This document shows positions 1,864 through 59,267 of a stretch of 64,000 nucleotides of DNA, piece by piece. The DNA comes from an uncultured Gammaproteobacteria bacterium (GTDB taxonomy: Bacteria > Patescibacteriota > Microgenomatia > Levybacterales > UBA12049), in contig CAZCCG010000001.1 of assembly GCA_964497535.1 (NCBI GenBank), positions 2,688 through 66,687 on the forward strand, in the 5' to 3' direction. The notes under the pieces are model-generated. The model had not been told where the DNA came from and ran no database searches. It saw nothing but the letters and a program-made list of their open reading frames with translations. The stretch's first letter is position 1; every line of letters starts with the position of its first letter. The translations under genes and the position numbers were made by a program.

Positions 1864-2745
1864 ATGAGCTTTTTCAAAAATATCTTAGACAGTATCTATA
1901 ACCCTTCGTATTATCGACAAATCGCGCAAAAACCACTTACCTCTTCTATATCGTACTTTCTGTTATTGGCACTTCTTCTTACTGTTATCCAGACGATTAC
2001 ATTTATAAATCCTGTAAGCGCGGGTGTTACTGATCTGGTTTCAAAAGCAATCCCCAATCTCGTCAATAGCTATCCAAAGGAGTTATCAGTCACAATCAAA
2101 AATGGCTCTGTCTCCACCAATGTGAAAGAACCATATGTGATTCCTCTTCAGTCTCATAATTCTTCAGAACCAAAAAACCTTATTGTCATTACTACCAAAA
2201 AGACAGTTCCTCTTGAGCAATTTTATACCTATAATTCTCTTTTTGTACTCACTAAATATTCTCTTATCACAGTGAATAGTAGTACGAAAGCTGTCCAGGA
2301 ATTTCCCTTGCGGGATGTGAAAGATATGACCATCAACCGAACCACAATTAACCAGCAGATTACTCACATCCGTCCCTATTTCAAAACGATTGTACCGGTA
2401 CTTCTTGTCTGCATTGGTTTGGGAATATACATCGGTTATCTTCTTCGATTTGTGTATCTGCTTGCGTTGGCTCTTCTGATATTTGCTCTGATGAAATTTC
2501 TCAAACGTGATATGAAGTATGAAGATGCATACAAAATAGGCATTCATGCAATTACCGTGGGGCTTATCGTTGAAGCATTTCTTTTTCTCTTTCAATTCCA
2601 GATCCATACCGATGGCTTTCCGCTGATGACTACGCTTCTTTCTCTGATAGTGGTATATCTCAACCTGAAGGATCAACCAAAAACCAAAGTAGCAACCCCA
2701 AAACTAATAAAAAAGTCCTCCAGAAAAACCTCAAAAAAGAATTGA
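1864..2745 (+). CDS. integral membrane protein, hypothetical
   Basis: 293-aa ORF with several TM helices and a K/S-rich C-terminal tail. Confidence 0.55.
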   Translation: MSFFKNILDSIYNPSYYRQIAQKPLTSSISYFLLLALLLTVIQTITFINPVSAGVTDLVSKAIPNLVNSYPKELSVTIKNGSVSTNVKEPYVIPLQSHNSSEPKNLIVITTKKTVPLEQFYTYNSLFVLTKYSLITVNSSTKAVQEFPLRDVKDMTINRTTINQQITHIRPYFKTIVPVLLVCIGLGIYIGYLLRFVYLLALALLIFALMKFLKRDMKYEDAYKIGIHAITVGLIVEAFLFLFQFQIHTDGFPLMTTLLSLIVVYLNLKDQPKTKVATPKLIKKSSRKTSKKN

Positions 2746-2807
2746 ATCTATTTCTCTCTTACTGTCACTTGTTAGAAGTTAGAAGCTAAACAGTTTGGTC
2801 AGTTAAC

Positions 2808-2997
2808 CAATGTTCGGCCTCCAACGCAGCGGCGCACCCAAACCCTGCGGCGGCTTGCCGCGTAACCTCGACACCGTGATGCGTGGAGGGAGACCACGAG
2901 AACGGAGAGAGTGTTACAGCAGAGAAAACTAAGCTATTTGATCTGACAACCAATGTTCGGCCTCCAACGCAGCGGCGCACCCAAACCCTGCGGCGGT
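2808..2997. repeat. perfect 48-bp direct repeat (2808-2855 and 2950-2997) duplicating the 3' end of trxB
   Basis: accaatgttcggcctccaacgcagcggcgcacccaaaccctgcggcgg occurs twice, 94 bp apart. Both copies encode ...GFGCAAALEAEHWL. Confidence 0.85.
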
Positions 2998-3945
2998 GAT
3001 TGCTTGTTTATATTTTGTATCATGGACATCCCCTGCTACAAAAATTCCTTCTACATTGGTCTTGTAGTGATCGTGGATAACAATAAAACCCTCTGAATCA
3101 ACATCTATTCCTTTAAATACTTCTGTATTGGGTTTATGTCCAATTGCCACAAATACTCCATCAATAGGAAATTCCCAAATGGTTTGTTTATCATTTTTCT
3201 CAAGCGTCTTTCCTCCGGCTTGCTCGGGTGTTTGAGTTGCCATCTTATCTGCGGGCTTAATAATGATTGAGCCGTCAGAACAATGACTCACGAGCTTTAC
3301 TTTTTCAACCTTTTGCTCACCGAGTATCTCCTCTATTGTGGTATTGAAAATAACGGTAATTTTTTCATTGGCAAAGACTTTGTCTTGCATAATCTTGGAC
3401 GCCCGCAATGTATCTCCTCGATAGATAATCCATACATGACTTGCAAAGCGAGTCATAACCAATGCTTCTTCCATAGCACTGTCGCCGCCGCCGACAATAA
3501 TTACTTTTTTGTCTCTGAAAAATGGTGCATCACAAGGTGCACATGATGAAACACCCCGGCCTATTTTTTCCATTTCTCCCTTGGCACCCAACCATTTGGT
3601 ATCGGCACCGGTTGCAATAATTACACTGCGGCCTTCATAGGTTTTCTCAGCGGTTGCAACTTTAAAGGGTTTCCCGGAAAAATCTGCCGAGACAAAATCT
3701 TTTTCAATGATCTCTGCCCCATGATGCTCTGCTTGTTTACGCATATTCATCATCAAATCCGGACCTTGAATCCCTTCGGGGAAACCGGGGAAATTTTCAA
3801 CCAGAGTTGTTAATTGAAGCTGCCCGCCCCACTTGGTGCCGGCAATGATAAGTGTTTTGAGATTTGCACGGGTAGTATAAATTGCGGCTGTCAAACCGGC
3901 AGGCCCACTTCCAATGATAATAACGTCGTATAAACTTTCAGCCAT
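2929..3945 (-). CDS. trxB: thioredoxin-disulfide reductase
   Basis: MAESLYDVIIIGSGPAG FAD motif, CAPC redox-active disulfide, GGGDSA NADPH motif, C-terminal AAGFGCAAALEAE. Start ATG at 3943-3945 verified by hand. Confidence 0.9.
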   Translation of the reverse strand: MAESLYDVIIIGSGPAGLTAAIYTTRANLKTLIIAGTKWGGQLQLTTLVENFPGFPEGIQGPDLMMNMRKQAEHHGAEIIEKDFVSADFSGKPFKVATAEKTYEGRSVIIATGADTKWLGAKGEMEKIGRGVSSCAPCDAPFFRDKKVIIVGGGDSAMEEALVMTRFASHVWIIYRGDTLRASKIMQDKVFANEKITVIFNTTIEEILGEQKVEKVKLVSHCSDGSIIIKPADKMATQTPEQAGGKTLEKNDKQTIWEFPIDGVFVAIGHKPNTEVFKGIDVDSEGFIVIHDHYKTNVEGIFVAGDVHDTKYKQAITAAGFGCAAALEAEHWLSDQIA

Positions 3946-4014
3946 AGTAAAAACGAAAAACGTAAAGCGAAAAATGCAAAACAACCCATTATTTTACGCT
4001 TTGCGCTTTTAGCT

Positions 4015-4344
4015 TTACGCTTGATTCAGGACTTCTTCTACTCCCTTTTTAATATTCTCTTTGGGTTGGGCGCCAACCATAGTCTTAACCGGTTCTCCTT
4101 TTTTGAAGACCATAAGAGTTGGGATACTCATAACACTATATTGTGCAGATACCTGCTGGTTCTCATCGACATTGAGCTTGCCCACTTTTACTTTTCCTTC
4201 AAATTCTTTTGCCAATTCTTCAACAATCGGACCCACGATTTTGCAGGGTCCGCACCAGGGTGCCCAAAAATCTACCAAAACCGGCATCTCGGCTTTGAGT
4301 ACTTCTGTGTCAAAATTTGCGTCTGTTAATGTTAGTTCTGCCAT
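4015..4344 (-). CDS. trxA: thioredoxin
   Basis: WAPWCGPCK active site in a 109-aa protein. Confidence 0.9.
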
Positions 4345-20121: not shown

Positions 20122-21945
20122 CTATTTCTTTCCCTGATCTTTATACATTGCGCTCAGTTCTTTTACTGTTGTTATATCTTCTGCTTTTTTATCATCTCGA
20201 AACTTCACAAGTCGTGGAAATCTAAGGGCATACCCTACTCCTTTTGCTCCATCTATAAGCTCCATACCTGCTGTGTGAATAGGACTTCTGGTTATTTCAT
20301 CAGCCAGTACCTCAATGACGATTTGGGGACGGATCCAGACAGAAGGAGTAATGAATGAATTTACCCGTGCTGGTTTGTGATCCACTTTTATCTTATCGGC
20401 ACGTCTGTGGATTTCAGTCCATTCTTCATCGGTAAGCCCCGTACCGATACGAGTTACTGTTACAAACTCATCTTTCTTGTCATCATAGACTCCGACAAGC
20501 AGTGATCCGGCACCAAATGATGTGCGCTTCCCCTTTCCATAGATGTATCCTAGAATCACAACGTCGATGGTGTCATGCAGTTCCCCGGCACTATGGCGCT
20601 TGAGTTTTACCCAATTAAAATTTCTTCCTCCTGCTACGTATCCAGAATCAGGCCGCTTCACTACAACCCCTTCAAGACCTTTGGAGATAGAATCATCAAG
20701 CATCAACTGTAATTCTTCAGGTTTATGTAATATTTTCCCCGGTGCCGGGATTAGCGTGTCATCACCCTGAATTGATTCCTTAAGCAATTTCATACGCTGA
20801 GTCAGGGGTGTATCAAGGAGAGATTTCCCATCAACATACAGAATGTCAAAGACAAACGCTTTGAGGGGAAGTTGTTTTGCTGTTTCTTCAATGTTGTGTT
20901 TGCGGCGTCTTTTGGTTGTTTCCTGAAACGGTAAAAATTCTTCTGATTCAGCATTGTAAGCTAATGCTTCTGAATCAAGTATTACCGTTTTTGCTTTTAC
21001 TTGTTTGAGTGTTCCTTCGATGAGTTCCGGGAACATATGGGTCATTGTTTCTAAGTTTCTGGAATACATCTCAACCTTAGTACCATTCTTGTGTATTTGC
21101 ACTCTGAACCCATCGTATTTTGGAGTTGCATGAACTCCCTGTCCAACTTGCCCTGAGCCTGCCGAAGGAGCTTGCCCTGAGCCTGCCGAAGGAGCTTGCC
21201 CTGAGCCTGCCGAAGGGTCCATCTTCTCAAATACTTTGGTGGGATTTGGGAGCCGTTCACAGAGTTCTGATCGAATGGGACGGCCAACCGTTACTTTTAA
21301 CTTCTCCACTGCCTTGAGACCATCTTCACAAAGCGTCTTACCAATAAGCCCCAGATCTGATGTTTCATTGTATGCTTTTTCAAGCAGTTTACGATTACTC
21401 TTATCTCCCAATATTGCCGTAGCCAACCCATCCAACACGGTCGGGTCTCCAATCCCAAGCCGATTGTTTCCAAGCGGTATCCGAACCAGATGTTTTGCAG
21501 CTACAGCATCCATATGCTCCAGAAGTTGCCTGAGTGCGGTTATTTTTTTCTCAACAGACCCTGCACCACCAAACTGCGCAATCTTGGTCAGCTCGTTAAA
21601 CACAGTTGTTACTGACAGTTCTTCTTTTTTTCCTTTGTGTCGTTTATGTTGTGCTAATTCAAAAGCAACAAGACCCAAATCTCCTTTTTTGTTGTAATCT
21701 GTAAGTACTTCATCTTTGGAAAGTCCAAACGCTTCTCCAATACTTTGTGCAACCATCTTGTCAGCCATGCCAATCTCAACCGGTGAGAAAAATGGCCCTA
21801 CTCTGCCTTGTGTGAGATAAATAATTTTATCAATCTCCTCTTTTTGAGCAGCTTTAAATAGATCAGACAAAATCTCGATGAGCTTCAACCGGGATGGCGT
21901 CTGCTCAAGTTTTTCAAAATATTCACTGAGAGTAGTAAATTTCAT
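20122..21945 (-). CDS. lig: ATP-dependent DNA ligase
   Basis: KYDGFRVQIH adenylation motif I (KxDG) and an OB-fold-like C-terminal domain. Confidence 0.85.
   Translation of the reverse strand: MKFTTLSEYFEKLEQTPSRLKLIEILSDLFKAAQKEEIDKIIYLTQGRVGPFFSPVEIGMADKMVAQSIGEAFGLSKDEVLTDYNKKGDLGLVAFELAQHKRHKGKKEELSVTTVFNELTKIAQFGGAGSVEKKITALRQLLEHMDAVAAKHLVRIPLGNNRLGIGDPTVLDGLATAILGDKSNRKLLEKAYNETSDLGLIGKTLCEDGLKAVEKLKVTVGRPIRSELCERLPNPTKVFEKMDPSAGSGQAPSAGSGQAPSAGSGQVGQGVHATPKYDGFRVQIHKNGTKVEMYSRNLETMTHMFPELIEGTLKQVKAKTVILDSEALAYNAESEEFLPFQETTKRRRKHNIEETAKQLPLKAFVFDILYVDGKSLLDTPLTQRMKLLKESIQGDDTLIPAPGKILHKPEELQLMLDDSISKGLEGVVVKRPDSGYVAGGRNFNWVKLKRHSAGELHDTIDVVILGYIYGKGKRTSFGAGSLLVGVYDDKKDEFVTVTRIGTGLTDEEWTEIHRRADKIKVDHKPARVNSFITPSVWIRPQIVIEVLADEITRSPIHTAGMELIDGAKGVGYALRFPRLVKFRDDKKAEDITTVKELSAMYKDQGKK
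21148..21219. repeat. in-frame 24-bp tandem repeat x3 inside the ligase gene (encodes PSAGSGQA x3)
   Basis: cttgccctgagcctgccgaaggag repeated three times. Confidence 0.85.
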
Positions 21946-34873: not shown

Positions 34874-35797
34874 TCACAAAACTATAGAAGCTAAGAAAAA
34901 TATAACGGCCAAAACAACCAGCTGTATATACATCCCCGGTACCATCCCCACCCAGTGTGTATGCCAATGGGCATCTATTTTATTAAGCTTTCTAAATCCA
35001 TACCCAGGATTAAATACAAACCAAAAGAAATCCTCAAGTAATATTGCCAAACACAACACCCCAAGCATCTGCAATTCCAAAGACCAGGAAAAAGTAATCC
35101 CAAAGAAAAATCCTGCCTGCATCAGTACCACGACAAAAATAGTCAACCATGTGTGGTAGCCAGTGACTGGTCGTTGCCCAACAAAGAAATGGGAAATCTT
35201 GGTGACCATTCGCCAGGTCGGTAACTTCTGTGCCCATCCATCCACTCCCTCTACTTGTATCTCAAGCTGTGCTACAAAAAAAGAGGCTACTATTCCAAAA
35301 AGACAAATCATCATAATTGATGGGTTTGCAAGAGGAGTATCCTGAGCAATAAAACTCAACAAAAAAAAGATTACTCCACCGGTAAAAAACTTGAGATATG
35401 AAAGTGGAATTGATCCAAACCACTCGTGATGCCAGGTAATATCTTTTTGTGTGAACTTTTTCAAGCCATAATGAGGGTTGAGTACAAACCACAAGAAATC
35501 CTCAACAAGCCAAATGAAGCAAAATGCCGAAAGGATATGCAGTTCCAATGTAAGATCCCACGAAAGAGTAAGAACAAATACCCCATGCAGAAACCAAAGA
35601 ATAGTTGTAATAAGCCAAAAGTGATACCCTGTTAACGGCGCTTTTCCATAGATGATTTTCGTAAACTTATTGCGTAGTCTCCACGTGGGAAGTTTTGCTG
35701 CCCACCCATCTTTACCCTCAATTTCGATTTCAAGCTTTGCCAATGCAAAAGATACCAGAAGAATAAAGAGGATAAATGGAATAATCAGGCTACTCAT
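34874..35797 (-). CDS. membrane protein with internal tandem duplication (two ~150-aa repeats)
   Basis: KLEIEIEGKDGWAAKLPTWR...PLTGYHFWL repeated as QLEIQVEGVDGWAQKLPTWR...PVTGYHTWL. Start overlaps the ftsH stop (TAATG). Confidence 0.6.
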   Translation of the reverse strand: MSSLIIPFILFILLVSFALAKLEIEIEGKDGWAAKLPTWRLRNKFTKIIYGKAPLTGYHFWLITTILWFLHGVFVLTLSWDLTLELHILSAFCFIWLVEDFLWFVLNPHYGLKKFTQKDITWHHEWFGSIPLSYLKFFTGGVIFFLLSFIAQDTPLANPSIMMICLFGIVASFFVAQLEIQVEGVDGWAQKLPTWRMVTKISHFFVGQRPVTGYHTWLTIFVVVLMQAGFFFGITFSWSLELQMLGVLCLAILLEDFFWFVFNPGYGFRKLNKIDAHWHTHWVGMVPGMYIQLVVLAVIFFLASIVL

Positions 35798-40930: not shown

Positions 40931-41055
40931 TATGTATTATTCTAGCAAATCCTTCCCTGACGGGTTGGGTGTAGCACCGTGCCCTTGGCCGGTTGCTGGA
41001 TGGATCATCGAGCCAATACTCTCCCCATCTCTCACGATTTATTTAATTAATCCTA

Positions 41056-48443: not shown

Positions 48444-48463
48444 AGTATCTCTTCTCTCAACTG

Positions 48464-48534
48464 TAGGCCCAGAGGGAATCGGACCCCCGTCAAGTGTGTA
48501 TAAGACACCCGCTCTACCATTGAGCTATGGGCCT
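48464..48534 (-). tRNA. tRNA with anticodon TAT (tRNA-Ile-UAU, AUA-decoding)
   Basis: Hand-folded. Perfect 7-bp acceptor AGGCCCA/TGGGCCT, D-arm GCTC-AATGGTA-GAGC, anticodon loop CTTATAC, T-arm GGGGG-TCCGATT-CCCTC. Confidence 0.65.
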
Positions 48535-53864: not shown

Positions 53865-54023
53865 TGGGTCAACAAGAAATCATCCACTGTGGCCAGTGCG
53901 GGACACCCATTCACATAACTAACCTTAAGCAAGTTCCACGAGCTGAAGGGATAGAGCTGAAATGCCCCGTCTGCCACGGTACACCCATAGTCAAACCCTA
54001 CTGTGAGTCTCGCGACAATTAGG
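53865..54023 (+). CDS. small zinc-ribbon protein (52 aa), absent from the ORF track
   Basis: Strong RBS AGAAGGAG 5 nt before the ATG. MGQQEIIHCGQCGT...CPVCHG, i.e. CxxC...CxxC. Confidence 0.45.
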
Positions 54024-54032
54024 GGAGTCCTG

Positions 54033-54317
54033 ATGGATCAGATTCCACCTCTCTGTGGCATCGAACGATGCAAACCTAGGGGTAGAAAGTTCAAAGTGGT
54101 CGTTATCAACCAGCACGCGCTGGGTGATGAAGCCATCACGAGGGCACTCTCACATCAACAGGGAAACTACAACCATCCTTTGGATATTACATCTCTGCGG
54201 GAACTCAGCAAAGAGAACGCAGAAGCATGGTGCGCCATGATAAATGACGTGCATCAGAAACTGGTAGCCTTCATCACACCGCCCGAGAACAAGAAGACAG
54301 TTGCACAGGAGGCATGA
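54033..54317 (+). CDS. hypothetical protein (high-GC island)
   Basis: MDQIPPLCGIERC..., with RBS GGGGAG. Confidence 0.4.
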   Translation: MDQIPPLCGIERCKPRGRKFKVVVINQHALGDEAITRALSHQQGNYNHPLDITSLRELSKENAEAWCAMINDVHQKLVAFITPPENKKTVAQEA

Positions 54318-54318
54318 T

Positions 54319-55128
54319 ATGCAACTTCTCGATGGGAAAACTGCTCTGATCTTTGGCGTTGCCAACGAGCGTAGTTTGGCCTGGGGCATCGCACAGGCGC
54401 TTGCCGCCCAGGGTGCAATGTTGGCGTTTACTTACGCAGCAGACGCGCTGGAGAAGCGGGTTCGCCCGCTAGCTGCTCAGGTCGGTTCCCACTTCGTCGA
54501 GCGCTGCGACGTTCAAGATGACACCGAGCTGGATACGGTATTCCGTCGCTTCGGCGAAGAATATTATCCACGGCTCGATATCCTTGTTCATGCAGTTGCG
54601 TTTGCAAAGCGAGAAGAACTCGCTGGACGCTACGTAGATACCTCCCGTGAGGGATTCCAATTGGCCCTCGACGTAAGTGCCTACTCCCTGGTGGCACTTG
54701 CTAAACGAGCTGCGCCGCTGATGGCAGGCACCAACCCGAGCATCCTGACGCTGACCTACGACGGCTCGCAACGCACGTATCCCAACTATAACGTGATGGG
54801 AGTGGCAAAAGCCGCTCTTGAGGCGAGTGTGCGATACCTCGCCCGAGATTTGAGCCCGGATGGTATTCGGATCAACGCAATCTCCGCTGGTCCAGTTCGG
54901 ACACTTGCATCATCTGGAATCCGTGGATTCCACTGGATTCTGGATCATGGTGCAGAACGAGCACCGCTACGTCGTAACATCGGACAAAGTGATGTCGGGG
55001 ATGCCGCTGTCTACCTCAGCTCTGACCTGGCCCGTAATGTCACAGGTCACGTGTTGTATGTTGATGCCGGTTCTCACATTGTTGGCGCAGAGCTAGGTGC
55101 CAGCGAGCGGGAAACTGCTGGCGACTAA
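54319..55128 (+). CDS. fabI: enoyl-[acyl-carrier-protein] reductase (NADH), FabI
   Basis: LDGKTALIFGVANERSLAWGIA N-terminus and the Y-x6-K region (YNVMGVAKAALE). ~57% GC. Confidence 0.9.
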   Translation: MQLLDGKTALIFGVANERSLAWGIAQALAAQGAMLAFTYAADALEKRVRPLAAQVGSHFVERCDVQDDTELDTVFRRFGEEYYPRLDILVHAVAFAKREELAGRYVDTSREGFQLALDVSAYSLVALAKRAAPLMAGTNPSILTLTYDGSQRTYPNYNVMGVAKAALEASVRYLARDLSPDGIRINAISAGPVRTLASSGIRGFHWILDHGAERAPLRRNIGQSDVGDAAVYLSSDLARNVTGHVLYVDAGSHIVGAELGASERETAGD

Positions 55129-55462
55129 TCCATTCCACACATCCTATCAGGGCGAGAGGGTGCAATCTTGTACTCTCCGCCCTGTAATTTTTACTTTTCA
55201 GCATTGGTTCGCGTAACGATCCGCGTAGTTCAGCGGTATTTTTGCGTTCTCTCTTCTTTTCCTCTATAATTCCAAACGAAGAATAATTCAGTTCCTTGTA
55301 GACTGTTGTTTTTCGCACATTTACATGTCTGCGCAAAAAAATCTTTGTTACAGAAGCAACGGCTATGGGAAGATAACTCCTTATCTTTCTGTAGGCTTTG
55401 CTTCTTCCTTCTTGGGTGCAACCCAAGAAAAATAACAGAGAAGCACGTCAGAAAGGGAACCC

Positions 55463-55915
55463 ATGAAATACAAAAGGCTTGTGAGTATTGTAGGAAACGG
55501 GATGCTGATGGTGGCGGGTCTTGGGCTTATGACAATCCCCACCAACATGCTGGTAATCATTCTGGGGATATCAGTCTATTCTATCGGAGTACTACAGTTC
55601 ATACAAGCACTTCGGCCCAGACCCCTGGTGAGACACTATGTCACCGACTTTGGTTATCGACTCGAGTTCTACCGACAAGCAGAGCTCTGGATATTTCGAC
55701 TTCAAAGGAAAAGGGGGAACAGACGTTTTAACCAATGGTATACCATCAGTCAATCCAGCTATTCTCCCCCCTTGACTCCCACGGGACTACACAGTCTGTA
55801 CGAACAGATATATAGAGGAGTGGATGCGGGATATGACCTGGAAGCAGGACGCCTCTGGAACCATATGCTGACATACCTGCACGGGCATCAACTCTTGGTA
55901 GGAGAATCTGCGTAA
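55463..55915 (+). CDS. membrane protein, hypothetical (high-GC island)
   Basis: Two N-terminal TM helices. Confidence 0.45.
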   Translation: MKYKRLVSIVGNGMLMVAGLGLMTIPTNMLVIILGISVYSIGVLQFIQALRPRPLVRHYVTDFGYRLEFYRQAELWIFRLQRKRGNRRFNQWYTISQSSYSPPLTPTGLHSLYEQIYRGVDAGYDLEAGRLWNHMLTYLHGHQLLVGESA

Positions 55916-55928
55916 GAAAGGACTGACT

Positions 55929-56531
55929 ATGCGTATCGCAGTCTTGTCTGAGGAACCCATCACTGAGTTCCCCCAGGAGGAGGGATTCGAGTGGACACGC
56001 GTCGGTCTCGACCCAGCAACCTGGTCACCCGGAAAATTCGATTGCTTCGTAGTGAAAAGCCCATACAGGAAACTCTTTATCCAGGAAGTAACCAAGAGGT
56101 GGAAATCCCGGAGCGATTTCCCTGCAGCTCCTTACCTTATGGTGTCACGCCGAGGACGGGTTCCCAAGGATTACCGCGACGGGTTCGACGGGTATGTGGT
56201 AAAACTACAGGAACTTGTAGAGTTTGCAGGAGCCATCAGCGACCGCAAGAGAGACTACGCCAACCGTAACAGAGTAGACACCCGACCTCCGTTGGAGCCT
56301 CCCCCTGTAGGTGAGAATCTATCCTGTTCCGAGTGCGGCCTGCTTCTGCGTACGACCGATCACGAAAAAGAGGGAGAGGACTATACCCCGTTCGTAGAAG
56401 AACGAACCCGGGGATGGGAAATCCCTTGTCCGGGATGCCACAACCCCCTGCGTATCTACGAATCGGTTACTGGACCCATACCCGAGTGGCAACCCCTCGT
56501 GGATGAGGCAGACTTGGGACGAGGCGTCTAG
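55929..56531 (+). CDS. hypothetical protein with C-terminal zinc ribbon
   Basis: CSECG...CPGCHNP. Confidence 0.5.
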   Translation: MRIAVLSEEPITEFPQEEGFEWTRVGLDPATWSPGKFDCFVVKSPYRKLFIQEVTKRWKSRSDFPAAPYLMVSRRGRVPKDYRDGFDGYVVKLQELVEFAGAISDRKRDYANRNRVDTRPPLEPPPVGENLSCSECGLLLRTTDHEKEGEDYTPFVEERTRGWEIPCPGCHNPLRIYESVTGPIPEWQPLVDEADLGRGV

Positions 56532-56556
56532 TACCACGCGCAGACACACCACACCA

Positions 56557-56583
56557 GGGCGGTCGAGTCTGACTCGACCGCCC
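56557..56583. repeat. GC-rich palindromic hairpin GGTCGAGTCTGACTCGACC (family shared with 662-686 and 63894-63917)
   Basis: gggcggtcgagtctgactcgaccgccc. Confidence 0.8.
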
Positions 56584-56629
56584 CCAAACATCCTCTACTA
56601 AATGCACCCATTGAAAGCTAAAATATGAA

Positions 56630-56762
56630 GTTCGGTTATCGGTTCTCAGTCTTCGGTTTTCAGATAAAGGTTCTTCAGTTTTCTGTTTATCAGTTAGAAC
56701 CGAAAGACCGATCACTGGTAAACTTCGCTCCGACAACTGACAACAGAGAACTGATAAGTGGA
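56630..56762. repeat. repeat family A, copy 3
   Basis: ttcggttatcggttctcagtcttcggttttc...gacaacagagaactgataagtgg. Confidence 0.8.
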
Positions 56763-56827
56763 ATAGATCCGCGTAAATCCGCTCTAAATCCGTGAAAATC
56801 AATTGAGGTATTGAAGAAATTGAACTA

Positions 56828-56869
56828 TACGCCACCAGCCTCGCCAGACGCGAGTCTAGGCGGGAACGC
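56828..56869. repeat. 42-bp inverted repeat, left copy (partner at 59806-59851) flanking nrdJ-nrdR
   Basis: tacgccaccagcctcgccagacgcgagtctaggcgggaacgc. Confidence 0.9.
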
Positions 56870-56888
56870 TTCTAACTAAACACTCCGG

Positions 56889-59267
56889 TTAGCAGGCGGA
56901 ATATCCGCAGGAGAAACATTTCTTGCAGCCTTCCTGATATGCCAGGGTCCCTGATCCACAATCAGGACAAATATCAAATAAATCAGTGTTGGGTAATCCT
57001 GTCGCTCCGCCTTCCAGGGTCAATTGCTGCATCATTGAAGATTTTTCTTCTGGTTCTGCCGCAACTGTATCCGCAGCAACCGGTGCATGATTATTTAGAC
57101 TCATCTTATCCTCTACGTGCCCATTCACTACAAATCCTGAATACTTTGCCATCACTTTTGCTACGGCGTCAGGCAATGATCTCACTCGATTGGGACCAAA
57201 CCCGACACTGCCTGAACCCCCAATACCTGCTAATTCTCCAACCAACGTTCTCATACGTTCTCTCCCCGGCACCGGGCTTGAGAGCCGCAAGAACTGAGAA
57301 ATAATGCGACCCAATGCATCTGCCATTGCCATGACATCTGATCCGGATTTTCCATGGTTGATAAAGACTTCAAACGGTTCATTTCCCCCATCATGATTAA
57401 TGGTAATATACACTTTTCCGGTTGGGGTCTCAGTCGCATATGTTACTCCCTGCACAACCATGGGACGAGGCAAAATCGGCTGTTCTTTTGCTTGCTCTAC
57501 AATCTCTTTTTTGACTTCTTCTTTTTTCTGATCCTCAACACGGGAGAGTACTCCTTCGCGGGATCCATCGCGCATATAGGTTACTCCTTTGAGTCCCAGA
57601 TCATACGCTGCCATGTAGAGTATCTTTACATCCTCAACAGTGTGGGAGTTAGGAGCATTCACAGTCTTTGAAATAGATGAATCAATATATTCCTGCGCAA
57701 CTGCTTGTACCTGAGCATGCTCCATGGGGTTTAAATCGTTTGCGCCGACATAATACCCCGGCTTTTCTGCATCTGGATGGTCTTTTTTCCATTCTTCAAA
57801 GAGCGGATGATACATGATGTGTTCTCCGGTTCGATCCCGTCGGATAAAGGTGAATTCATATACCGGTTCGACCCCTGATGAGACACCGGACAGAAGACTT
57901 GTCGTACCGGTTGGGGCAATCGTCAATAGCACTGCATTACGAATCCCCTGTTTTTTAATTTTGTCCCTGATTTTCTTTGGCAATGCTTTGATGTGATAGC
58001 CTTTCATATACTTTTTATTATCAAATTTGGGGAAGGCTCCTTTTTCTTTGGCAATATCAGAAGATGCATCATAGGCATTGTCACGAAGAACCTGGAACAT
58101 CTTTCGAATCGTCGGCATTGCTTCCTCTGATCCATAGCGCAGTTTCATTTTTATCAATGCGTCAGCAAGTCCCATGATCCCCAGTCCCGTTCGTCTGATC
58201 TCTTTGGCAATCTGCTCATTCTCAGGGAAGAAATAATAAGTCTGATCAATAACATTGTCCAAAAACCGCATGGCAACACGAACATCTTTACCAAACTGGT
58301 CAAAATCAAATTTCTCATCTTTCACATACGCTGCCAGATTCATGGCACCCAGATTGCATACTGCCCATGGCCCAAGCGGTTGCTCTCCACAGGGATTGGT
58401 TGCAACCAGTCTTTCAAAATACCAGGTGTTTGACCGCTTGTTGGATCGCTCCAGAAAATGAAGTCCCGGTTCTGCACTTCTCCATGCAGCAGTACAGATC
58501 AAATCCCACAAATATTTTGCTTTGATAGTCTTGTAGACTTTGACTTTCCCACCCATTTTCTTCCATTCATCCAGTTCCCCTCTCCAATGGGTATCATAAC
58601 GGGGATCATCCAGATCAGCGTATACCAGATCCCAATCTGAATCTTTTTTGACTGCTTCCATGAAAGCATCCGATACACAAACCGACAAATTGGCACCATT
58701 GATCTTTGAGAGGTCTTGTTTGACTGTAATAAATTCTTCAACATCCGGATGCCAATCCCACAGCATAAGCATTGTGGCCCCACGACGAGTACCGCCTTGT
58801 TGCACGACATCATGAGTTGCGTAGGAGAAAAGCCCTGCCCACGTGACTGGACCCGATGAAGTTCCATTGACCTTTTTGACACGCGCGCCACGCGGTCGAA
58901 GAGATGAAAGATTAAGCCCTACTCCGCCTGAGCGGGATTGAATTTCAACCAATTGTTTGAGTGAGTCCAAAATTCCTTCTCGTGAATCTTTGGGAGATGG
59001 GATAACGAAACAATTAAAATACGTAACCTGGTATCCTGTTCCGGCACCGGATAAGATGCGCCCACCGGGAACAAATTTAAAATCGGACATGACATTATAA
59101 AATGCCTCTTCCCACTGTGCCCGTTTTGGAGCTTTTTCAATTTCTGCGATACCCCGAGCAACCCGTCTCCACATGTCTTCTGGTGTTGGTTCTGTGGGAT
59201 TCCCCTCTTTATCTTTCAAAGAGTATCGATCCAAAAATACTTTTTCGCGAATTCCGTCAAGTTTCAT
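56889..59267 (-). CDS. nrdJ: adenosylcobalamin-dependent ribonucleotide reductase (class II, monomeric type)
   Basis: NPCGEQPL active-site motif, B12-binding region, C-terminal zinc ribbon CPDCGSG...CKKCFSCG. Confidence 0.9.
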   Translation of the reverse strand: MKLDGIREKVFLDRYSLKDKEGNPTEPTPEDMWRRVARGIAEIEKAPKRAQWEEAFYNVMSDFKFVPGGRILSGAGTGYQVTYFNCFVIPSPKDSREGILDSLKQLVEIQSRSGGVGLNLSSLRPRGARVKKVNGTSSGPVTWAGLFSYATHDVVQQGGTRRGATMLMLWDWHPDVEEFITVKQDLSKINGANLSVCVSDAFMEAVKKDSDWDLVYADLDDPRYDTHWRGELDEWKKMGGKVKVYKTIKAKYLWDLICTAAWRSAEPGLHFLERSNKRSNTWYFERLVATNPCGEQPLGPWAVCNLGAMNLAAYVKDEKFDFDQFGKDVRVAMRFLDNVIDQTYYFFPENEQIAKEIRRTGLGIMGLADALIKMKLRYGSEEAMPTIRKMFQVLRDNAYDASSDIAKEKGAFPKFDNKKYMKGYHIKALPKKIRDKIKKQGIRNAVLLTIAPTGTTSLLSGVSSGVEPVYEFTFIRRDRTGEHIMYHPLFEEWKKDHPDAEKPGYYVGANDLNPMEHAQVQAVAQEYIDSSISKTVNAPNSHTVEDVKILYMAAYDLGLKGVTYMRDGSREGVLSRVEDQKKEEVKKEIVEQAKEQPILPRPMVVQGVTYATETPTGKVYITINHDGGNEPFEVFINHGKSGSDVMAMADALGRIISQFLRLSSPVPGRERMRTLVGELAGIGGSGSVGFGPNRVRSLPDAVAKVMAKYSGFVVNGHVEDKMSLNNHAPVAADTVAAEPEEKSSMMQQLTLEGGATGLPNTDLFDICPDCGSGTLAYQEGCKKCFSCGYSAC

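Follow-up and report, generated by a model that had tools for sequence, protein, structure and literature searches.

A duplicated trxB tail around a conserved hairpin in Levybacteria-like genomes, probably a small cassette gained and lost by recombination

We analyzed a 64,000-nucleotide stretch of DNA (hereafter referred to as the window) from an uncultured bacterium (NCBI GenBank assembly GCA_964497535.1, contig CAZCCG010000001.1, positions 2,688 to 66,687 of the forward strand) and found that the last codons of its trxB gene occur twice, around a conserved base-paired element, in a tail-hairpin-tail layout that recurs in 11 independent lineages. We somewhat favor the explanation that this is a cassette of ~140-156 bp without an open reading frame (ORF), made of a replacement tail and the conserved hairpin, which is gained and lost by recombination. 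An earlier note, made from the sequence of the window alone, had proposed the scar of an element integrated into the 3' end of the gene. Along the minus strand, the cassette follows the order trxB body, tail A with its stop codon, pyrimidine-rich flank, GC-rich imperfect hairpin and tail B:

2929 to 3945, minus strand: trxB coding sequence including tail A (338 amino acids, MAESLYD...EHWLSDQIA and stop; TAG stop at 2929-2931), from the ORF list
2926 to 2996, minus strand: repeat copy A, exact over 49 nt (2948-2996), with the tail A codons AAGFGCAAALEAEHWLSDQIA and stop running from 2994 to 2929, from the translated tail
2918 to 2928, minus strand: pyrimidine-rich 5' flank UUUUCUCUGCU (consensus UUYCCCGGCU), directly after the tail A stop, from the alignment
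2862 to 2917, minus strand: conserved imperfect hairpin of ~56 nt, from RNAalifold, as are the next five features
2917-2913 with 2866-2862, minus strand: stem P1, GUAAC/GUUAC
Within 2862-2917, minus strand: stem P1b, CUC/GAG
2907-2902 with 2877-2872, minus strand: stem P2, CUCCGU/ACGGUG
2898-2894 with 2886-2882, minus strand: apical, variable stem P3, CGUGG/CCACG
2847 to 2861, minus strand: junction segment GCGGC-AAGCC-GCCGC, a helix without covariation support
2783 to 2853, minus strand: repeat copy B, exact over 49 nt (2805-2853), with the displaced tail AAGFGCAAALEAEHWLTDQTV and stop running from 2851 to 2786, outside the trxB frame, from the translated tail

The direct repeat reported earlier as a perfect 48-bp duplication is real, but the two intervals given for it (2808-2855 and 2950-2997) are one base out of register and not literally identical. 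The maximal exact repeat is 49 bp long (2805-2853 = 2948-2996, offset 143), and beyond this core the similarity covers 71 nt at 89% identity (2783-2853 vs 2926-2996). By our own arithmetic, an exact 49-mer pair has a chance expectation of ~1e-20 in 64 kb, and no further copy of the repeat was found in the window on either strand with up to 8 mismatches. Both copies encode AAGFGCAAALEAEHWL on the minus strand, after which copy A runs on to ...SDQIA and stop, the real end of trxB, and copy B to ...TDQTV and stop. Because the offset of 143 is 2 mod 3, tail B is not in the trxB frame; the second tail, previously described as in-frame, thus has no continuity with trxB, although copy B is intact as a frame of its own. 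TrxB is completed by tail A, while tail B lies out of frame and without a conserved start codon. The 94 nt between the exact repeats (2854-2947) have the length stated earlier, but they are not an unrelated spacer, as they consist of 19 nt of tail A and a conserved 75-nt element. Similarly, the repeat is GC-rich (0.67 vs 0.42 for the window), but not strikingly so, given that the tail codons of relatives without the duplication reach 0.58-0.69; the GC-richness is therefore that of the Ala/Gly-rich motif, and a GC-rich foreign origin of the repeat was ruled out. Within the window, copies A and B show 0 mismatches over 49 nt and then 8 mismatches over the next 22 nt (14/22 identical). This sharp drop looks like the edge of a conversion tract, and the perfect 49-bp identity marks a recent A/B conversion tract.

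The closest TrxB genes belong to Levybacteria/Microgenomates metagenome-assembled genomes of the candidate phyla radiation (CPR). A second trxB tail lies 121-156 nt downstream of the first in L002, L004, L007 and L011 as well (L numbers are our handles for the compared loci), and the spacer is conserved among the window, L002, L007 and L011. A database search of the spacer, recommended in the earlier note, was carried out on metagenome contigs using a 20-base exact pattern that included the junction bases CGCGGCA. This yielded six more true copies (L065, L078, L082, L084, L087 and L090), each conserved and each located between two trxB tails, together with 21 chance matches in high-GC genomes; variants of the L108 type were missed by the pattern, and this further lineage, represented by four assemblies (L108-L111), was found via a protein cluster. 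The tail-hairpin-tail layout is present in the window, L002, L007, L011, the six scanned copies and L108-L111, and all of these full occurrences share a conserved, base-paired spacer of 75-95 nt. A covariance model built from ten copies gave scores of 90-114 bits for those copies and of 79 bits for L108-L111; in the window it matched 2840-2934 (103 bits), and no second copy was detected in the 64 kb or in any fetched locus. A weak match in L062 (100-188) lies inside a coding region and was judged to be due to chance. The hairpin is a conserved base-paired element of many Levybacteria/Microgenomates lineages, seen only at the trxB tail, and its distribution is patchy, with close relatives of the window (76%, 73% and 72% identity) lacking the cassette.

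Convincing support for the structure comes only from comparison; folding energy does not single out the 255-nt region (z = -1.15 and -0.20 for the two strands). In the ten-sequence alignment, the 20 pairs of the main helix are paired in 99% of cells, with compensatory double changes at 7 of the 20 pairs and one-sided changes at 0, and the covariation (0.249 vs a shuffled mean of 0.080) was reached by none of 500 shuffles and far exceeded slid controls (≤0.053). One G.U pair, retained in 9 of the 10 copies, is possible only on the trxB-sense strand, and the hairpin is always situated 10-20 nt past the stop codon. Most stem and internal-loop positions are invariant across the alignment, which suggests sequence-specific recognition and not merely a stable stem. 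The conserved GCGGC at the junction is able to pair with the opening Ala codons of tail B and no less with those of tail A; this junction helix is 94% paired, with no double changes and no covariation. A structural check of the spacer, also recommended earlier, thus revealed a covarying hairpin across copies but no known family: at gathering score, Rfam 15 returned only two tRNAs and an S-adenosylmethionine (SAM) riboswitch for the whole window, and no match was obtained for 2650-3100 at a permissive E ≤ 10. Neither similar hairpins nor other tail duplications were found elsewhere in the 64-kb window, and a promoter/terminator scan at the locus gave nothing relevant. We ruled out an intrinsic terminator, since the sequence that follows the hairpin, GCGGCAAGCCGCC, has no U-run and no terminator-like site was detected on the minus strand across 2400-3300. 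An origin of the hairpin arms from trxB coding sequence by fold-back or tandem inversion was also rejected (an anchored alignment made by eye agreed at only 5 of 21 positions). Translation of the hairpin in five frames produced no protein matches, an uninformative search.

Comparison of L011, which carries the cassette, with L009, which has a single tail and no cassette (TrxB identity of 92%), distinguished the two tails. Their divergence is 9.5% in the gene body, 29% in tail A (Fisher p = 3e-4) and 12.5% in tail B; the tail B of L011 and the single tail of L009 are 87.5% identical at the nucleotide level, differ synonymously save for one change, and share an unusual SMQG.DADFTAN extension. 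Tail B is therefore orthologous to the single tail, and tail A is the one that stands apart. Single tails found in relatives are likewise similar to tail B. The earlier proposal of an insertion into the 3' end that brings a replacement tail was borne out to this extent, with the original tail left downstream. Two tail types also occur within the 90%-identity protein cluster of L082. In this cluster, the cassette is present in L082 and L108-L111, which also share their downstream context (88% identical and contiguous through the element), whereas L107 and L112 have none; L107 and L082 agree at 92% over 2 kb. The single tail of L107 resembles A over codons 1-12 and B over everything from codon 13 on, making it a precise A×B recombinant, and the tails of L082, L107 and L108 are mosaics of A-type and B-type patches. 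The crossover of loss lies between codons 12 and 13 in L107 and near codon 1 in L009. Cassettes are therefore lost by recombination between the A and B tails, at points that differ by lineage. After such a loss, part of tail B is the expressed tail again, and the two tails exchange sequence patches.

The sequence beyond trxB varies as well. Synteny breaks exactly at the trxB stop between strains that are 88-92% identical (L107 3154 vs L082 2200 / L108 3606): L107 and L112 have a different gene 13 nt past the stop, L082 and L108 run on into an Rrf2-family gene, and L009 and L011 also diverge directly after the stop. It therefore seems that the trxB 3' end marks a boundary for rearrangements that go beyond the cassette. 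Several cassette-free relatives (L094 4020-4230, L095 4020-4300, L098 4040-4310, L103 3510-3740, and L004 7300-7370 / L005) have a conserved promoter-like box past trxB (TTGACA...TATGGTAAGAT / CTATGGTATCATGTGTGAACCTAAGGAAAGGGT), followed by a conserved non-coding stretch without called genes that leads into a tRNA gene in several loci; this stretch may represent a small RNA that has escaped annotation, or the leader of a tRNA.

We further compared the first 48 nt of tails A and B in nine genomes besides the window. The two tails differ at 19-38% of these positions, with 76 synonymous and 14 non-synonymous differing codons and a 22:9:85 distribution over the three codon positions (p = 8e-7 vs the split expected if one copy were neutral). 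Amino-acid differences are smallest between A and B of one genome, and lineage-specific residues are common to both tails of a genome (F/Y, A/S/M/Q; VQRWFEG in L090). Since the differences are mostly synonymous, we take tail B to be repeatedly exposed to selection at the protein level. Tail B was rejected as an independent small ORF, as no in-frame start codon lies between the stop of A and tail B in 4 of 10 genomes and the 64-aa ORF at tail B in the window has no Pfam match. Programmed readthrough, frameshifting or bypass was likewise discarded, with A-to-B offsets of 140-156 nt representing all three residues mod 3 among the genomes. The simplest account is turnover, in which tail B has for some of its history been the expressed tail, in alleles without the cassette and in recombinants, and has traded patches with tail A.

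Some lineages carry altered or decayed versions of the element. L093, the closest relative of the window (81% TrxB identity), still has tail A and the hairpin's left half, whereas the right arm and tail B have been lost, and in L108-L111 the 3' arm of P1 is mutated and the stem is broken. L004 has a spacer of ~33 nt similar to the element's left half, and behind it lies a ~70-nt copy at ~93% identity that starts earlier, at YKQAIT; its sequence is identical in three assemblies (L004, L104 and L105), and we read it as a probable A-to-B conversion that overwrote the right arm. A simple tandem duplication in L004 was dismissed, because the spacer is only weakly like the sequence after B and the 3' untranslated region (UTR) of L005 is not the spacer. 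In L037, a shorter tail repeat (ALDASRWLEEN) surrounds a different long hairpin, which gave a weak covariance-model match on the opposite strand (25.5 bits), with a recognizably similar apical part. We tentatively regard this hairpin as homologous in reversed orientation; if so, orientation would not be fixed, which would argue for an element acting at the DNA level.

Taken together, we propose that recombination, homologous or over short homologies, would bring the cassette in, using the trxB body and tail A as the left arm and the tail that is then left as B as the right arm. The duplicated tail would render the insertion harmless, because the cassette brings its own tail, and would supply homology for both transfer and loss, while cycling between occupied and empty alleles would keep both tails under protein-level selection. 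The hairpin would be the part selected for its own sake. Most likely it acts as a folded sense-strand nucleic acid that is recognized sequence-specifically by an unlinked factor. We lean toward a selfish or hitch-hiking element with an unlinked partner, ahead of a host 3'-UTR device, because close relatives mostly lack the cassette, the hairpin is decayed or truncated in some lineages, and a relative in reversed orientation may exist. Several observations weigh against this recombining cassette. No acquisition event was caught, and the L011/L009 difference could equally be a loss in L009, so that gain by recombination is what the arrangement suggests to us. Across genomes, A-tail similarity tracks the TrxB body (Spearman rho 0.43) and B-tail similarity does not (rho 0.03), values that come from 48 nt and non-independent pairs; this is the opposite of the simplest prediction for an incoming A and a native B, and hairpin similarity, like that of tail B, does not follow the gene body. 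The hairpin is ~83% identical at the nucleotide level among hosts with ~63% amino-acid identity in TrxB, and such conservation could reflect long-term purifying selection for a host function and not spread. The element was seen only at trxB, but because the scanned pattern contained the junction bases CGCGGCA, which could hide copies elsewhere, this does not establish site specificity. No partner protein was identified in a comparison restricted to genes near trxB, and none of the hypothetical excised proteins (body plus tail B) of seven cassette-bearing genomes was present in the protein collection, although the L082 cluster listing did reveal an empty allele.

The chief rival explanation is a host-beneficial RNA in the 3' UTR at the end of the trxA-trxB transcript (a stabilizer, a processing site or a source of small RNA) that arose once together with the tail duplication, was inherited mainly vertically and was repeatedly deleted between the direct repeats, leaving tail B as a by-product. 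We consider this unlikely but deserving of serious attention, and it is kept alive by the G.U pair possible only on the mRNA-sense strand and by the strong conservation of sequence and pairing across deeply diverged hosts; the position 10-20 nt past the stop codon, the lack of mobility genes nearby, the agreement of A-tail similarity with the gene body and the documented A×B loss fit it too. However, it leaves unexplained a protein-like tail B at synonymous saturation, and the hairpin lacks the U-tract of a canonical intrinsic terminator, is absent from most close relatives, is truncated in L093 with P1 broken in L108, seems oppositely oriented in the diverged L037 homologue, shows no one-sided G-U intermediates in 20 covarying cells and sits in a region of unexceptional folding energy (z = -1.15). 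A bolder version of the selfish element, which we regard as a long shot, is a protein-less homing cassette that carries its own rescue: the hairpin would be recognized by, or would guide, an unlinked nuclease or recombinase that attacks cassette-free trxB tails, tail A would be the rescue copy and the displaced tail would form the right homology arm.

The integration scar of the earlier note, with attL/attR of an integrase-dependent element whose interior was deleted, or a minimal cis-mobilizable element still movable by a helper, is in our view very unlikely. Direct repeats that equal the target gene 3' end with a replacement tail, presence/absence polymorphism, a CCGCCGC common to the start of A and B in most genomes, and GCCGC at the tail start in 9 of 11 cassette-bearing vs 4 of 13 cassette-free genomes all speak for it. 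Nevertheless, relatives compared at the trxB 3' end show the same arrangement and no larger inserts or half-sites (~110 fetched loci), an outcome that the earlier note had itself named as a refutation. The ORFs tested next to trxB included no integrase, reverse transcriptase or transposase, and no mobility gene was seen adjoining trxB in the window. The loci share no gene family besides trxA, trxB and upstream neighbors, with differing downstream genes, and viral contigs gave one chance match and then none. The repeats have no fixed att-like core: the longest identical A/B run is 5-22 nt in other genomes and not fixed in position, and the loss crossovers vary as described for L009 and L107. 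The spacer conserved in every full occurrence also speaks against a decayed or excised integrant, and a 143-bp double-stranded circle is an unlikely integrase substrate. The alternative that the earlier note had itself offered, a small non-coding insertion, came closest to the truth. Switching of tails at the RNA or translation level, in which the cassette would be removed from or bypassed in a fraction of transcripts so that one allele yields both tails, resembles unconventional splicing of the HAC1/XBP1 type or T4 gene 60 hopping. The protein-level constraint and lineage-specific residues common to both tails, the sense-strand structure, and a conserved GCGGC that could pair with the GCCGC starting either tail are compatible with it, but tail A alone gives a complete protein, the offsets fall in all three frames in different genomes, no stop or take-off signal lies at the start of tail A, the junction helix lacks covariation, no ribozyme or intron family was matched in Rfam, and L093 dispenses with tail B and half the hairpin. 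DNA-level loss and mosaics already offer a way in which tail B could come under selection, expression of B from the same allele is not needed and has no positive support, and we think such switching very improbable. Finally, short direct repeats at gene ends can come from replication slippage and metagenome-derived assemblies can misjoin strain variants, yet we give almost no credence to a neutral tandem duplication, or an assembly artefact, with nothing in between. An ancient neutral duplication, raised earlier as a possibility, is contradicted by a covarying spacer conserved in 11 independent lineages and not repeated after tail B, by patchy presence in close relatives and by a tail B that is not decaying neutrally, and an artefact by the same arrangement in 10 further independent assemblies, with some identical alleles repeatedly recovered (L108-L111; L004/L104/L105).

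Regarding the surroundings of the cassette, trxA (4015-4344) lies directly upstream of trxB, and a DUF1189 gene convergent with trxB ends at 2745. A 23-nt inverted repeat with 83% complementary arms, 19 nt apart, spans the trxA stop and trxB start (3958-4022) and could be an intergenic hairpin inside the trxA-trxB operon. The window TrxB matches P0001 of a public protein collection exactly over 338 aa and has homologues in the thousands, with Pyr_redox domains. Its length ranges from 301 to 370 aa among close homologues; the window protein and several relatives have an insertion of ~30-35 residues (…HCSDGSIIIKPADKMATQTPEQAGGKTLEKNDKQTIW…; window 3150-3300, TrxB residues ~222-262), which relatives of 302-309 aa appear to lack, judged from protein lengths alone. 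In the 90% cluster of L065's TrxB (P0124-P0134), P0124 has 303 aa and the remainder are unrelated peptides of 47-50 aa (MMNFDSNLHCNSYLL...), which looks like a clustering oddity of the protein collection and not biology. Elsewhere in the window, we noted a 24-nt unit (CTTGCCCTGAGCCTGCCGAAGGAG) repeated head to tail at 21147-21218 in three copies, two of them identical and the third at 92%, and a 65-nt direct repeat (34973-35037 and 35441-35505; 75% identity, 468 nt apart) that probably represents two related coding segments. On the minus strand are a SAM riboswitch (S-box) at 40944-41043 (48.3 vs a gathering score of 44.4 bits in Rfam) and a tRNA-Ile with anticodon TAT at 48463-48534 (ARAGORN call and Rfam tRNA model); this anticodon is uncommon in bacteria, where AUA is usually read by a modified CAU tRNA. 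The region 54001-57000 has a GC content of 0.48-0.55 (vs 0.42 for the window) and no rRNA or other Rfam match, and may hold foreign or unusually composed genes.

If the recombining cassette is the right explanation, it would represent a minimal insertion that restores the end of its target gene without an integrase, an endonuclease or any ORF, needing just a spare 20-codon tail and a conserved hairpin at one site of a housekeeping gene, in a bacterial radiation that is still poorly known. It would also be a natural example of a duplicated coding end that neutralizes an insertion and supplies the homology for its own transfer and loss. The hairpin adds a new conserved structured element, backed by covariation and missing from Rfam, and the cassette may serve as a marker of recombination and gene flow among uncultured CPR populations. 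Moreover, a displaced pseudo-tail can look selectively maintained, which calls for caution in pseudogene calling. Were the protein-less homing cassette true, a unit of ~143 bp would spread by inserting itself into an essential redox gene throughout Levybacteria. It would be nature's counterpart to the cleave-and-rescue drives made by engineering, and no smaller site-specific element that propagates itself would have been described in bacteria.

We found no specific equivalent described in the literature, but several known systems share features with the cassette. A diversity-generating retroelement (DGR), with its variable and template repeats (VR/TR), likewise places a repeat of a gene 3' end a short distance downstream with a hairpin nearby; a DGR was rejected here, as the 117 differences show no link to adenines (A stands in copy B at 39 of them and in copy A at 26), the changes are mostly synonymous and no reverse transcriptase lies near trxB. 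Integron attC sites are imperfect hairpins of similar size with ...AAC / GTT... at the stem base; as in our hairpin, their spacers are in part unpaired, one mismatch is conserved and the apical stem varies. The window sequence CTGTAAC ... GTTACGC partly matches the attC boxes R'' RYYYAAC and R' GTTRRRY, and the stem base is AAC/GTT in 7 of 10 copies and ACC/GGT in 3 of 10. Unlike integrons, however, the trxB loci contain a single copy and no cassette array, no integron integrase was found next to trxB, and attC recombination creates no tail duplication. Small palindromic mobile repeats include repetitive extragenic palindromes (REP) and their paired REPIN forms, miniature inverted-repeat transposable elements (MITEs), Rickettsia palindromic elements, mitochondrial GC clusters and double-hairpin elements. 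These resemble the cassette as GC-rich imperfect hairpins of ~60-100 nt in AT-richer genomes, with compensatory pairing and patchy presence. In contrast to REP/REPIN and MITEs, our element occurs once in the 64-kb window and once per fetched locus, always at the trxB 3' end, and it is flanked by a coding duplication of 36-90 nt instead of a short target-site duplication.

Further parallels lie among elements that rebuild a gene end. In genomic islands, prophages and cis-mobilizable elements (CIMEs) that integrate into 3' ends, the repeats also correspond to the gene 3' end, and the proximal copy completes the gene while the distal one is the displaced original end. The trxB cassette differs in having ~75-95 non-coding nt between the tails and no integrase or cargo in any occurrence; its spacer is a single conserved hairpin, and it has neither a fixed identical core nor a constant crossover. 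Rhs/CdiA-type polymorphic toxin loci undergo C-terminal displacement that leaves orphan tails, and homing-endonuclease insertions, such as those in fungal mitochondrial atp6, bring a new C-terminus along while the native one survives as a remnant further downstream. Here, by contrast, two functionally equivalent 20-residue ends of a housekeeping enzyme are involved, with no toxin/immunity pair or endonuclease ORF and with the hairpin as sole cargo. What these systems have in common with the trxB cassette is that an incoming piece, recombining within a conserved segment, replaces the expressed C-terminus and the old tail persists downstream, still homologous; a foreign expressed tail followed by a displaced native tail is what we found in L011 compared with L009, and the B-like single tails of relatives agree with it.

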